Below, in pieces: positions 1-11,767 of a stretch of 12,480 nucleotides of DNA. The stretch comes from a virus (taxonomy: Duplodnaviria; Heunggongvirae; Uroviricota; Caudoviricetes): IMG/VR virus record IMGVR_UViG_2548877011_000005; one strand, 5' to 3'. The translations under genes and the position numbers were made by a program. A model generated the notes under the pieces. It saw nothing but the letters and a program-made list of their open reading frames with translations, was not told the DNA's origin and ran no database searches. Positions within the stretch are counted from its first letter, which is position 1, and each line of letters begins with the position of its first letter.

Positions 1-1745
1 ACGCCAATCCGGCTGGTTGCCTCCTTCGTGAAGACAAACTCACCACGGTGAACAATCCCCGCTGGCTCATATTTGCCGCCGGTTCCCGTAAATCCTCCGG
101 TTGCAAAATGGAATTTCGCCGCAGCGGCCTGAATGGCTGCCAGCAGGGATTTCTCCTGTGCAGACAGCTGGCGACGTTGCGCCGCCTCCTCCAGTACCGC
201 GAACTGACTCTCCGCCTTCCACAAATCCCGGCGCTGCTGGCTGATTTTCTCATTCGCTCCGCTGTGCTTCTCCAGCGTCCGGAGCTCGGTTTCAAGCGCC
301 AGCAGGGCAGCATGCGCCTGGTCTTCCTGACGCTCACCGGCTGACACTTTGACTCCTGACGACTTCGGCTTTTTCAGCGTCGATTCATAATCCTTTTTCG
401 CCGCCGCCATCAGCGTGTTGTAATCCGCCTGCAGGATTTTCCCGTCTTTCAGGGCCTTATTCAGCTCTTCCTGCCGGTTAGTATATTTCTCCAGCGGCGT
501 CAGCAGACGCTCATACGCCTTCTGCGCCTCTCCGGTATACTTCAGCCGTGATGCGTCCCGTTCGGCCCGGTCCCTGGTAGCCAGTTCACCGGCTTTTTCC
601 ATATCTGACTGCAGCGTGGCCGCTGCCAGCCCCAGACGGGCATTTTCCCGGTCATCCCATGCGCCCTGCAGGTTGGCACGGAAAGAGGAGGTCTTTCCCC
701 GGCGCTGGCTCCGGCTCTGGTACCACTGCCATTTTTTATCCGCCTCATCGAATGCCTTCTGCGCACTGGCAAGCATATCCGCTGAGGATTCCGGACGACC
801 AATATCCAGAATGGCATCCCACATCGATTTGAACGCCTTCCCTGTTTTATCCGCCCAGGTCTCCAGCGTCCCCATGTTTTCTTTCAGGCGACGGGTCTGC
901 TCATCAAAGCCTTTCGTGGCGATATCGTTCGCCGCCTGTAAGGCCCCGGCCTCATCACCGGAACGCTGCAGCTGCGCAACAAACGCAATCTGCTCTGCCG
1001 TCACGTTACGGAACTGGCGCGCCATCGCAATCAGCCCCGACGTAGGGTCGGTGGTCAGTTTTCCGAAAGCCTCTGCAACCTTGTCCACCTCCACACCGGA
1101 TGCAGAAGCAAAACGCGCGACACTCTGGTTGATGGCATCAAACTGTTCACCACCACGCACACCGGCATTCACCAGGGCTGCCAGTGACTCACTCGCCTGG
1201 TTAAACGTCAGCCCTGCGGCCTGTCCGGCTCTGGAGAGCGTCAGCATGCGATCGGCAGTCAGTCCGGACTGATTACCGGAAAGAACCAGGGTTTTATTAA
1301 ACGCTGAAAGCGTGGAATCCCCCCGGTACCAGGCGTACGCCAGCGCACCTGTCGCCACCGCCAGCGAGGTGACCCCGACCATCGGCAGGGTGATCGCACC
1401 GGCAAGCCCCCTGAACATGGGGATCATCCCGCCGAAGGAGTCCTTCACCTGACCGCCCTGTTGCAGCAGGATCAGCCAGGGATTCTGACCACCGGCAAGC
1501 TGCGTGGCGATATCCGTAAACTGTGCGGGCAGGGTTCGCATGGCCGCTTTATACTGCCCGACGGAAATCCCGGCTTTTTGTGCAGCCAGCGCCTGGCGGC
1601 TCAGGCCCTGTTCAACAGCACTGGCGGTTTTTCTGGCGTCAGTCTCCAGTCCGGAAAAATGACGCCTTACCCGGCTCATCTGCTCATCGAAACGGACCGC
1701 ATCCAGACTCAGGTCAACGACCAGATCGCCTACCGGTTCAGCCAT
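1..1745 (-). CDS. H: Tail tape measure protein gpH, N-terminal 581 codons only; 3' end lies beyond the window start
   Basis: ATG at 1745-1743 (minus) overlaps the T stop at 1738-1740, as in the lambda T/H junction. The minus-strand frame stays open to position 1, which is why no complete ORF appears in the track. Translation begins MAEPVGDLVVDLSLDAVRFDEQMSR... and a checked stretch (1461-1550, reverse complement) gives AAMRTLPAQFTDIATQLAGGQNPWLILLQQ, matching lambda gpH as I recall it. Confidence 0.9.
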   Translation of the reverse strand, partial: MAEPVGDLVVDLSLDAVRFDEQMSRVRRHFSGLETDARKTASAVEQGLSRQALAAQKAGISVGQYKAAMRTLPAQFTDIATQLAGGQNPWLILLQQGGQVKDSFGGMIPMFRGLAGAITLPMVGVTSLAVATGALAYAWYRGDSTLSAFNKTLVLSGNQSGLTADRMLTLSRAGQAAGLTFNQASESLAALVNAGVRGGEQFDAINQSVARFASASGVEVDKVAEAFGKLTTDPTSGLIAMARQFRNVTAEQIAFVAQLQRSGDEAGALQAANDIATKGFDEQTRRLKENMGTLETWADKTGKAFKSMWDAILDIGRPESSADMLASAQKAFDEADKKWQWYQSRSQRRGKTSSFRANLQGAWDDRENARLGLAAATLQSDMEKAGELATRDRAERDASRLKYTGEAQKAYERLLTPLEKYTNRQEELNKALKDGKILQADYNTLMAAAKKDYESTLKKPKSSGVKVSAGERQEDQAHAALLALETELRTLEKHSGANEKISQQRRDLWKAESQFAVLEEAAQRRQLSAQEKSLLAAIQAAAAKFHFATGGFTGTGGKYEPAGIVHRGEFVFTKEATSRIG

Positions 1746-2576
1746 ACCGGACTCCTCCTGCGATCCCTTCTGATACTGTCATCAGCATTACGTCATCCTC
1801 CGTCATGTCCGCCACATCCGGGGAAGCGGGGATAACTTCATTCCCGTCCGGGCCAAAGCGGACACCTCCGGCAAGCCCTGCCGCTTTCTGCATCAGCACA
1901 TCATCTTCAGGCTCTTCGTCAGCCTCGCGCCGGTTAAGCAGACTGAAATCCAGCGGATGCATATCCGGATCGCTGAAAAACAGGCTGAGCACGGTGTACG
2001 TCAGCCCGGAAAAGTGCATATCCAGCAGAACATCATGAAAATAATGGGTACTGTAAAAGCGGTGCCAGTCGGCATACTCCGTGGATGACATCCCGGCAAG
2101 CATGGCACGCCAGTCGGGTCGCCCCATCTCACGCGCCAGTTTCAGGGCAAAACTCAGCTCACCGTCGAACACTTTCCCGCAGAAACAGGCTCTGCAGGCC
2201 CGGCGTCCTCTGTCTGTTCAGGGGCATTATTCACCACAAACTCATACATACCGGACAGCCGGTACACCACGTTTTCAGCATGAGAAATTGCCTCCGTGGG
2301 CCAGGTGGTAAGCACTTCCTGCTCAATTTGTTTAACGGCTTCATTCATGGACGGCATCTGCGTCTTCTGCGGATGGTTATGCCACAGGGACATCGCCACC
2401 AGAAACGCGCCGGTTCTGATGGCGTCTTCCACAGTAAACTTCCGATTGCTGTCTGACTCCGCCTGTTCTGCCTGCCGTTTCATCAGGGCGAGATGCTCAA
2501 TACGCTGCAGGGCTGACAGTTCAGAAAGCGTGACGGTCACACCGTTATGTTCAAATGATTCGGTTTTCAGGAACAT
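1738..2576 (-). CDS. T: Tail assembly chaperone fusion gpG-T, made by programmed -1 frameshift at the slippery heptamer 2172-2178; the T part (1738-2172) has no start of its own
   Basis: Track ORF 1738..2172 (MFDGELSFALKLAREMGRPDW...) lies in the -1 frame relative to G and overlaps its 3' end. The heptamer G GGA AAG sits in G's zero frame exactly at the overlap. The arrangement matches the lambda G/GT frameshift. Confidence 0.8.
2154..2576 (-). CDS. G: Tail assembly chaperone gpG (140 aa)
   Basis: Track ORF with ATG at 2576-2574; GGAGAG Shine-Dalgarno upstream; lies after the V stop (2592-2594). Translation MFLKTESFEHNGVTVTLSELSALQRIEHLALMKRQ... matches lambda gpG from memory. Confidence 0.93.
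   Translation of the reverse strand: MFLKTESFEHNGVTVTLSELSALQRIEHLALMKRQAEQAESDSNRKFTVEDAIRTGAFLVAMSLWHNHPQKTQMPSMNEAVKQIEQEVLTTWPTEAISHAENVVYRLSGMYEFVVNNAPEQTEDAGPAEPVSAGKCSTVS
2172..2178 (-). other. Programmed -1 ribosomal frameshift slippery site GGGAAAG (X XXY YYZ)
   Basis: Plus-strand ctttccc at 2172-2178 is GGGAAAG on the minus strand. In the G frame the codons are GGA (2177-2175) and AAG (2174-2172); a -1 slip gives GGG AAA GTG TTC GAC, i.e. ...K V F D G E L S F, which is the start of the T ORF. Confidence 0.8.
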
Positions 2577-2591
2577 CTCTGACTCTCCGGA

Positions 2592-3332
2592 TTAACTGGC
2601 GGTGACGGTGATTTCTGCAACCGCAGCAAACTCACCATTACCGGATACGACCGGAATGTTGACCTTACCTGCAGCAACGCCATTCACGGTGATGGTCATA
2701 CCACTGACCGACACGGTGGCTTTTGTTTTATCCGCTGACACCGCACGGAAGCTCTTGTCGGTTGCGCCTTCCGGCTGGAAGGCCACGGTCAGCGTGGTGC
2801 TCTTCCCTTTCACTACGGAAGCGCTGGCTGGCGTCACGGTCATGCCGGTTGCCGCTGTTACCGTGCTGCGATCTTCTGCCATCGACGGACGTCCCACATT
2901 GGTGACTTTCACCGTGCGGGTGATCACTTCCTTCGCCGTCACCGCCTTACCGATACTGCTGACCCAGCCACGGAACACATCGACCGTGCCGTTCGGGAAG
3001 CGGATTTTATAGGCACGGGTATCGCCTTCATTAAACCACGCCAGCAGCGCCTGCTGCCCCTGCTCTCCGGGCATCCACGCCAGCGTGAAGCTGGTATCTC
3101 CGGCAGATTTCTGCCCCTGCCCGGTCGCGGTCCAGTCTGCATCTTCATCATCGAGATAGCTGTCGTCATAGGACTCAGCGGTCATCTCGCCCGGCGTCAG
3201 ATCCTTCACCTTAGCCAGTCGCTGCCAGTCATCGTCTGACAACGGGTTTGCATAAGCATCACCCTTGCCGTTGTAAACCCACAGAGTGGTACCGGCACCT
3301 TTTACCGGCTCAAGGGGATTTGGTGTTGCCAT
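2592..3332 (-). CDS. V: Major tail tube protein gpV (246 aa) with C-terminal Ig-like (Big_2) domain
   Basis: ATG at 3332-3330 preceded by GAGGA. Translation [36 protein letters not shown]... matches lambda gpV; the C-terminal ~90 aa ([20 protein letters not shown]...AEITVTAS) has the Big_2-type Ig-like pattern. Confidence 0.95.
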
Positions 3333-9652: not shown

Positions 9653-9855
9653 AACCTCACTCCCAGCGGACGACGGCGACGGCGGGTTGTCCCCAGTACC
9701 GACTCCGCATCATTGATCGCCCGGTTAAGCTCATCCAGAGAAGCTGCCGTATATTCAATTCTGCGACCATCTTTCTGGACAGACACCACCCGTTTACCGG
9801 TTAATAAATCAAGGCGCGCCTGACGCAGCGCCTGCAGTTCAGCGACTGTAACCAT
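9649..9855 (-). CDS. W: Head-tail joining / DNA stabilisation protein gpW (68 aa)
   Basis: ATG at 9855-9853 with GGAGGAG upstream; overlaps the A 3' end by 17 nt. Translation [40 protein letters not shown]... resembles lambda gpW (TGKRVATVQKDGRRVEF). Confidence 0.9.
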   Translation of the reverse strand: MVTVAELQALRQARLDLLTGKRVVSVQKDGRRIEYTAASLDELNRAINDAESVLGTTRRRRRPLGVRL

Positions 9856-11767
9856 TCACTCCTCCGGACAGCTTCGCTGCCAGTTCTTTCAGGGTTGGCC
9901 GGGTCGTCTCTTCTTCCCGGGATTTTGCCAGTACAGCCAGATCAAGCTGCCAGCGTTGCACGGACACACGTAATGCCGCGTAGGCATACACCAGGCAGTC
10001 CAGCGCTTCGTTACGCCGCTTTTTGTTATCCCACAGCAGACGCATCTTTCCTTTTTCCCACTTCTCCACAAGCTCTTCCGCCACCAGTTGCTGCGCCTCT
10101 GTCTGCGAAAAAATCTCCGGATCATCAGGAAAACGGATGGCATACGACGTGGCTTCATCCGCAGGCGTGGGATCGGCTTTCATACGGGCATAGAGAATTT
10201 CTTTTGCGGTGTCCGTCCCCACTTCGCACAGATACACGCCCCACTGATTGCGGGTTTTTGGCATGGTGATCACCGGCTTGCCATAAACAGATGCACCTTT
10301 TACCGGCAGCACCCGGAAAACACCGTGTTTTTTTGACCTCTGATAGACAATTTCGCCATCGATCCCCCCGGTGTCCCAGCAGACACGGGAAATGGTCATT
10401 TCGGTTCCGTCTGCATGGCGGTATTTTTTGTTGATCGCCACATCCACACGTAACAGCGTCTCTTCCTCATCAGGACGCCCCATAATGATGATTTTATCCA
10501 CCAGAAAGGCTTCCTCTCCCGGAGCCCATCCCCAGACATACATCTCAAAACGGTTTCGCTGCGAGTCAATGCCCGCCGTCAGATAAACCACTCGGGAAGG
10601 CACCGCAGCCGTGTAACGCACAACCTTATCCATCAGCACCTGGTGATCGAGTTTTTCGCCCACGGCCTCTTCCCAGGTCTCGCCCAGCGTGGTGTTCACA
10701 AAGGTTTTCAGGCCGTTGGGATCTTTCAGTGCATCCAGCCAGTCATAGACAATCTGTACCCAGGTGGTGAACGGACTGTACGCCGTCCAGATATGGAATG
10801 TGATGGAGCGCGGCGGCGGAATTTCATCACCCCGGGCGCTGAAAAACATCAGGCCGTCACGGGTCCACATGCCCGTGTTTTCACAGATCCACCGCCCGTT
10901 ACTCTGGTCAAGCTCAGACTGATGGATCACACAGCCATGATGCTCACAAAGGTAGAAAACACTTTCTGGCTTATTCTTCTCCCACTTAAGACCGAAAGGC
11001 GAGGCATCATCGCCAAATTTCAGATACTGCTCCTCCCCACAGTGCGGACAGGGCACATAAAAACGCATGAAGTGTGCCGACTCGTTAGCGGCTTTTTCGA
11101 TCTGGCAGGAGCCTTTGATTTTAGGCGTCGAGCCGCGAATGGATTTTGGCCATACAGAGCCCTCAATACGTTTATCCCCCAGCAGGGTTGGCGAACCCTC
11201 TTTTTCAACATCCGGTTCGAACGAGGAAAGCTCGTCATAACAGACCACATCCACGGATTTTTCACGGTAGTTTTTTGCTGCCGCACCACCCAGACACCAG
11301 AACCCCACACCGGAGGAAAAACGCTTCAGGGTGAGCGTATTATCGCGGTGTTTTCTTCCGAACCATGGAGCCAGCTCCAGCAATGCAGGAACATCCCTTA
11401 TCGTTGGCTCAACATGAGATTTCATAAAATCTTCAGCAGCTGAGTCCGTGGGCTGAAAAAGAAGGCTGTTGCGTGATTTATGCTCAATAAAATAAGCCTC
11501 CACTCCCAGCAACATCTTTGTATAACCAACACGGGCAGATTTAATCAGGTTAACCGTGCGAATCAGATCGTTGCCCATACAGTTCATGATGCCAACCTGA
11601 AACGGCAGTGTTTCCCACCGCCCCGGGGTATAAGACGACTCTTTAGGAAGGTAATAATGTTTATTGGCCCACTGAACTGTCGTCAGTGGAACAGGAATAA
11701 TGAGAGATAAAAGCCCTGTAGCTATCGCACCGGCTGCATTAGCTGCCTTCTGCGCGTCTGAAATCAT
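9839..11767 (-). CDS. A: Terminase large subunit gpA (642 aa from the ATG at 11767; track ORF extends to 11809)
   Basis: Lambda gpA-like along its length ([72 protein letters not shown]). The ATG at 11767 has a GGTGGA Shine-Dalgarno and gives the same N-terminal length as lambda before YYLPKES; overlap with Nu1 is then 29 nt. Confidence 0.93.

Follow-up and report, generated by a model that had tools for sequence, protein, structure and literature searches.

The IMG/VR virus record IMGVR_UViG_2548877011_000005 includes a stretch of 12,480 nucleotides (nt), referred to here as the window, in which the tail genes G and T lie on the minus strand, as do all features described for them below, and overlap at a slippery heptamer, GGGAAAG. 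This feature is almost certainly the programmed -1 ribosomal frameshift of phage lambda, G/GT, carried here by a hybrid of lambda and phage 21. The frameshift itself is already known in lambda, having reportedly been described by Levin, Hendrix and Casjens in 1993 and by Xu, Hendrix and Duda in 2004, 2013 and 2014. As a finding it matters little, being a rediscovery of one of the first and best studied programmed frameshifts with proteins identical to those of lambda, and its practical value lies in annotation. The initial annotation of this DNA had noticed the heptamer and read it as a frameshift site; that observation is confirmed and the interpretation is supported by what follows.

The overlap of G and T

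Gene G, which defines the zero frame, occupies 2154..2576, with an ATG at 2576 and a stop codon, TGA, at 2156..2154. The list of open reading frames (ORFs), the translation and the Pfam family PF06894 identify its product as the tail assembly chaperone gpG of 140 amino acids (aa). The slippery heptamer lies at 2172..2178, 5 sense codons before the G stop, and is placed by its sequence and its register, G GGA AAG, in which it covers Gly134-Lys135 of G. Read in the zero frame, G ends in GCG GGA AAG TGT TCG ACG GTG AGC TGA; the -1 reading of this region is GGG AAA GTG TTC GAC GGT GAG and onwards, open for 146 codons. This T segment (1738..2178, from translation and PF06223) extends from GGG AAA GTG to a TGA stop at 1740..1738, and the T ORF as mechanically listed is the 144 aa frame at 1738..2172 with a GTG start. 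The open stretch of the -1 frame reaches from 13 codons ahead of the heptamer to 1738, and both frames are open over 64 nt that contain the heptamer. The initial annotation had located the feature at 1738-2576, with the heptamer in the overlap of the two frames and the GTG at 2172; the coordinates are exact and the overlap is as it was described, the only omission being that the minus strand went unstated.

The fusion product gpGT consists of codons 1-135 of G followed by the T segment, giving 279 aa from join(2576..2172, 2172..1738) on the minus strand. This is also the product length given for the gpG cluster in Table S6 of Sharma et al. 2014, who counted that cluster as a true case of frameshifting. 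The ORF lengths, 423 nt for G and 435 nt for T, are the same as those of lambda.

The bare 7-mer is not significant, with 2 copies of GGGAAAG in the window against 2.19 expected, and in-register heptamers of the form XXXYYYZ number 10 in the 3965 codons of the window genes where about 15 are expected. The heptamer in G is the sole one of these 10 that lies at the end of a gene and opens a long -1 ORF (146 codons), the others being mid-gene with -1 frames that stay open for 4-59 codons. What exceeds chance is the configuration and not the 7-mer as such.

The second GGGAAAG in the window (693-699, minus strand, at about codon 349 of the tape measure gene H) was considered as a programmed site and rejected; it shares the register G GGA AAG, yet the -1 ORF there has only 15 codons, and H of lambda and H of phage 21 both lack the heptamer at the homologous place. 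At this probable chance site any slip would truncate H. A further in-register heptamer, A AAA AAA, is found in the terminase large subunit gene A (10328-10334, minus strand, at about codon 492 of 657), where the -1 frame stays open over 59 codons. Transcriptional slippage is another possible outcome of runs of seven A.

The relationship to lambda is very close. The 921 bases around the shift site are 98.9% identical to lambda 9667-10587, and match HK630, HK629, DE3 and many lambda derivatives equally well. Compared base by base with lambda there are 10 differences, of which the 6 in coding sequence are all synonymous third-position changes. At the protein level G and T show 100% identity to gpG and gpT of lambda. 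The heptamer and at least 17 nt on each side of it are unchanged. Alignment with lambda G and T had been suggested in the initial annotation as the check on the frame relationship and the heptamer, and in that alignment both agree. Judged against the curated gathering thresholds of Pfam, G belongs to PF06894 Phage_TAC_2, the family of the lambda tail assembly chaperone (TAC) protein G (E=9e-62, 206.9 bits where the cutoff is 27), while the family of the T part is PF06223 Phage_tail_T, minor tail protein T (54.1 bits where the cutoff is 25.9); the reconstructed 279 aa fusion matches both families.

The arrangement in the window is that of the lambda-type frameshifts reportedly described by Xu et al. 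(2004). Two ORFs lie between the tail tube and tape measure genes, the 3' end of the first is overlapped by the second, which is read in the -1 frame, a heptamer of the form X XXY YYZ is present in the zero-frame register inside the overlap, and the downstream ORF lacks a translation start of its own. A further mark of the type, established in lambda, is a fusion protein made in a low and fixed proportion (about 4%, 30:1) that tail assembly requires, and this would apply to the present element because its proteins and site are the same.

The slippery sequence of lambda G/GT is named as GGGAAAG in Table 1 of PMC3296357 and in PMC7618472, and about 96% of ribosomes remain in the zero frame there (PMC3296357). 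The body text of PMC3296357 prints GGGTTTG (codons GGT-TTG), and the window sequence agrees with the table. The motif G_GGA_AAG is among the most shift-prone in Escherichia coli (PMC5009743; Sharma et al. 2014), and hypomodified tRNA-Lys (mnm5s2UUU) leads to more shifting and a lower phage yield (PMC3296357, PMC7618472). In lambda gpG outnumbers gpGT by about 30:1, with the G part binding the tape measure protein and the T part the tail tube protein, and neither product is found in the virion (PMC5009743).

Because the proteins and the site are identical, these properties can be transferred to the present element by analogy with the experiments on lambda; this holds for the efficiency of the shift, for the mechanism through the tRNAs and for the role as a chaperone alike. 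Ribosomes would start at the ATG of G (2576), and most of them would stay in the zero frame across G GGA AAG and terminate at the TGA at 2156-2154, giving gpG of 140 aa. A small share, a few percent (about 4% in lambda), would slip back by one base on the heptamer, with the tRNA-Gly in the ribosomal P site re-pairing from GGA to GGG and the tRNA-Lys (mnm5s2UUU) in the A site from AAG to AAA, and would go on in the -1 frame to 1738 to produce gpGT of 279 aa. Both gpG and the G part of gpGT would be expected to bind the tape measure protein H, with the T part recruiting the tail tube protein V; both would be absent from the virion, and their ratio of about 30:1 would matter for tail assembly.

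Nothing in the analysis contradicts this account, and two reservations attach to it. What the window itself shows is the sequence with its register and frames, its homology, the setting among neighbouring genes, the conservation across homologues and the lack of an independent T start, whereas efficiency and function are carried over from lambda. Furthermore, in a reporter the bare heptamer gave only 0.277% shifting without stimulators, compared with 3.80% when the IS911 stimulators were present and 43% with the IS3 pseudoknot (Sharma et al. 2014), and the figure of about 4% may depend on sequence context beyond the heptamer.

Conservation of the shift site among homologues

The site was compared across 16 homologous loci, the window included, with T-domain identities from 100% down to 32% and with the diversity coming from a translated search of phage records. 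The other loci are those of lambda, phage 21, an Stx2a phage, an Stx1a phage, ASU11, N15, HK225, phi80, mEp043, Klebsiella phage Kp4865-4, LLS, Salmonella phage Fels-1, mEp460, Ayreon and Vibrio phage HY01. All 16 have a slippery heptamer at the homologous position and in register with the zero frame, yet the letters of the heptamer vary: it is GGGAAAG in the lambda group and Stx2a, AAAAAAG in Stx1 and ASU11, GGAAAAG in N15, HK225, phi80, mEp043, Kp4865-4, LLS, Fels-1, mEp460 and Ayreon, and CCCAAAA (register C CCA AAA) in Vibrio HY01. Fifteen of the 16 loci keep the A AAG core unchanged, Vibrio HY01 being the exception, and the zero-frame stop follows 1-5 sense codons after the heptamer. The initial annotation had regarded this as the conserved tail assembly chaperone frameshift of long-tailed phages, and the two Pfam families, the position of G and T between V and H and the identity of the sequence with the lambda site of the literature all point the same way.

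The coding pattern changes at the heptamer. Upstream of it the tails of G have diverged almost completely, with 55 of 60 aligned columns variable. From 4 codons past the heptamer the -1 frame of T encodes a conserved peptide, E(L/M)xF..(L/M)..LARE(F/M)..(P/A)DWR.ML, and downstream of the heptamer the variable columns at -1-frame codon positions 1, 2 and 3 number 8/28, 5/29 and 18/29 respectively. This peak of variation at third positions is the signature that coding in the -1 frame straight from the heptamer would be expected to leave.

Folding 3' of the heptamer and the alternatives to a ribosomal shift

One scientific question is whether conserved folding 3' of the heptamer tunes the gpG:gpGT ratio. 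A candidate RNA structure is predicted at 2094..2164 (minus strand), in which an outer helix pairs 2164..2157 with 2101..2094 after a spacer of 7 nt from the heptamer and encloses an inner hairpin at 2138..2103. As an addition to the frameshift itself, this two-level structure, which falls within the first ~26 codons of T, might be a conserved, moderate stimulator that lifts shifting from ~0.3% to ~4% and so sets the ~30:1 ratio of gpG to gpGT; we consider this possible but doubtful. It would explain how lambda reaches about 4% where the bare heptamer in reporters does not, as 4% looks like the output of a moderately stimulated site, and a spacer of 7 nt is typical of stimulators, which at signals of the dnaX and IS3 type follow the heptamer at a distance of 5-9 nt.

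Several measures of folding are in keeping with such a role. The 110 nt after the heptamer have a minimum free energy of -43.5 kcal/mol and fold better than dinucleotide shuffles (z -2.0), and the lambda, Stx1, N15 and phi80 groups share this architecture as their predicted minimum-energy fold (z -2.1 to -3.3). In each of the 15 homologues folding is also better than in synonymous recodings that keep the peptide (z -1.05 to -2.8, mean -2.0), and after adjustment for GC content the segment ranks 2 among 119 coding segments of the window. When the structure is placed on 15 sequences 87.8% of cells are paired, 6 of 21 pairs are changed on both sides (one pair of the outer helix varies between G-C, A-U, C-G and G-U), and covariation scores 0.183, higher than in any of the 500 shuffles or any of the slid controls (<=0.089), but the structure was derived from the very sequences on which it was tested and these represent few independent lineages.

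Other observations speak against a stimulator. The fold is not kept in Fels-1, mEp460 and Vibrio HY01, which are predicted to fold differently, and the suppression of synonymous change is weak, the fraction of synonymous differences showing only a small drop from 0.36 at codons 30-64 to 0.29 at codons 3-29. Sharma et al. (2014) also flagged a hairpin with a 7 nt spacer, but they recorded it in only 51% of the members of the gpG cluster, for which local folding did not exceed the average (ΔΔG 0.020 ± 0.095) and synonymous variability was not reduced. No Rfam family was found anywhere in the window at gathering thresholds. As to a stimulator on the 5' side, a Shine-Dalgarno (SD)-like element 6-17 nt upstream of the heptamer was looked for and no GGAG or AGGA-type element is present in GCAGAGCCTGTTTCTGC, in keeping with the entry SD = N for the gpG cluster in Table S4 of Sharma et al. 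(2014).

A different reading would dispense with the frameshift and treat G and T as ordinary overlapping genes, with T made as a separate protein either by initiation at the GTG at 2172 or by termination and reinitiation around the G stop, which lies 16 nt downstream of it. A 144 aa ORF beginning with this GTG is indeed present in the mechanical ORF list, T is annotated in this way in RefSeq lambda, in HK630 and by PGAP, and the short overlap with the G stop could in principle permit translational coupling. The initiation signals are not what would be expected of a start codon. The duplex with the anti-SD sequence upstream of GTG 2172 has an energy of -4.3 kcal/mol where random positions across the window average -4.0 ± 2.7, and its last paired base is 2 nt from the start codon, so that the match is at background level and wrongly spaced; clear sites, normally spaced, precede G, H, W, B, C and D (-6.9 kcal/mol for G and -10.3 for H).

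Neither is the start codon kept among the homologues. The position of the GTG reads GTC, GCA, GCC or AGT in 13 of the 16 loci, GTG being confined to the lambda/21 group, and it is the slippery heptamer that is kept instead. In addition the REM of lambda is REF in the N15, phi80, Fels-1 and mEp460 groups, which places the first conserved Met after the conserved stretch E(L/M)xF..(L/M)..LAREF; that stretch must then be translated from further upstream. The literature on lambda, moreover, has gpGT as the functional product (PMC5009743, PMC3296357). Taken together the sequence evidence supports the view, already put forward in the initial annotation, that T has no initiation context of its own; it speaks against independent initiation and against reinitiation, and a separate T protein is very improbable.

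Less credible still is a shift at the level of the RNA, whereby RNA polymerase would slip on the A run of GGGAAAG and some mRNAs would lose one A and encode GT directly: known sites of transcriptional slippage need runs of ~7 or more and, because the run is only 3 nt long here (4 in the N15 group), such slippage is most unlikely. Transcriptional slippage does change frame in some bacterial and phage genes (reviewed in PMC5009743), and the Stx1 and ASU11 variants carry a longer A run, AAAAAAG, but what is conserved is X XXA AAG in register, a pattern particular to the re-pairing of tRNAs, and the response of lambda shifting to thiolation of U34 in tRNA-Lys (PMC3296357) points to the ribosome.

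Genomic setting, annotation and known counterparts

The programmed ribosomal frameshift sits in a tail region with the gene order V-G-T-H, in which the Pfam assignments of the flanking genes make V the tail tube and H the tape measure. The major tail tube protein V, upstream of G at 2592..3332 on the minus strand, belongs to PF16461 Phage_TTP_12 (E=5e-70) and also carries Big_2. The tape measure protein H, downstream of T at 3..1745 on the minus strand and cut by the end of the window, belongs to PF06791 TMP_2 (E=3e-68); its ATG is at 1745 and overlaps the end of T by 8 nt. Further upstream of V are U, Z, FII, FI, E, D, C and B.

Across its whole length the window finds its best DNA matches in phage 21 and its relatives (~94.6% identity over 97%), and this match together with the lambda-like V-G-T means that the element is a mosaic and not lambda itself. 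On these sequence matches it is a hybrid phage or prophage that combines head genes of the phage 21 type with V-G-T of the lambda type. The genes Nu1-A-W-B-C-D-E of the window resemble those of phage 21 and V-G-T is ~99% lambda. C of the window is a 501 aa protease/scaffold of the S49 type and the homologue of D is 115 aa long, and as the phage 21 record begins at position 5 of the reverse-complemented window the cos end is placed at ~12476. The central part of H, at about 620-780 on the minus strand, aligns poorly to H of both lambda and phage 21, which match each other there. Judged by this alignment the tape measure gene is itself mosaic, and the divergent stretch is probably one source of the ~3% of the window that phage 21 leaves uncovered.

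Matching DNA is common, being present in 3704 of 5426 complete Escherichia coli genomes, and a scan of viral contigs with alignment of the T domain gave at least 576 contigs with relatives. In all 80 loci returned by that scan, among these at least 576 relatives, T is 100% identical to T of the window; the scan confirms abundance and adds no diversity. A sequence search of the PDB returned no solved relative of the 279 aa GT fusion.

As the initial annotation had anticipated, database records commonly split G and T. RefSeq lambda (NC_001416.1) and Escherichia coli genomes annotated by PGAP (for example NZ_CP148573.1) give T as a separate coding sequence (CDS) from the GTG described above, and HK630 (JQ086376.1) has a CDS that is labelled 'tail assembly protein GT' yet carries the coordinates of T only. 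A joined CDS is present in phage 21 (OL657228) and in phage LLS, and the slippery site is marked in the records of N15 and LLS. Where T is listed as a free-standing CDS from a GTG that is not a start, the 279 aa gpGT is missing from those records and from protein databases. The lack of any conserved T start also explains why annotators that insist on an ATG put the beginning of T at varying downstream positions. Another record of the lambda G/T region is GenBank MW057783.1, 'Campylobacter phage CJLB-4', which is 98.9-99.3% identical to it, uses lambda gene names and at 48,361 bp is lambda-like in size; from its sequence it looks like lambda rather than a Campylobacter phage.

Among known frameshift sites outside the tail genes, those of dnaX in Escherichia coli and of orfAB in IS911 and IS3 are of the same X XXA AAG class, which is read by the single Escherichia coli tRNA-Lys. 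They differ in having a demonstrated SD-like sequence upstream and a hairpin or pseudoknot on the 3' side, with a much higher efficiency, whereas the site in the window is without the SD-like sequence and a 3' structure is no more than tentatively suggested for it.

The sites of N15 (gp14/gp15), HK225, phi80, LLS, Fels-1 and mEp460 are much closer counterparts, with G and T domains homologous to those of the window, a shift site at the same place and in the same register, the invariant A AAG core and a T in the -1 frame. In these phages the heptamer is G GAA AAG, for which re-pairing in the P site needs a G·U pair, in contrast to the G GGA AAG of the window, and they have a very divergent C-terminal tail of G and a shorter T of ~115-117 aa.

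Closest of all is G/GT of lambda, with which the window shares identical G and T proteins, the heptamer with its register and flanks, the same ORF lengths and the order V-G-T-H, at a DNA identity of 98.9%. The window differs from it in the 6 synonymous third-position changes within G and T, and, beyond these two genes, in having head genes like those of phage 21 and a part of H that is unlike that of either phage.

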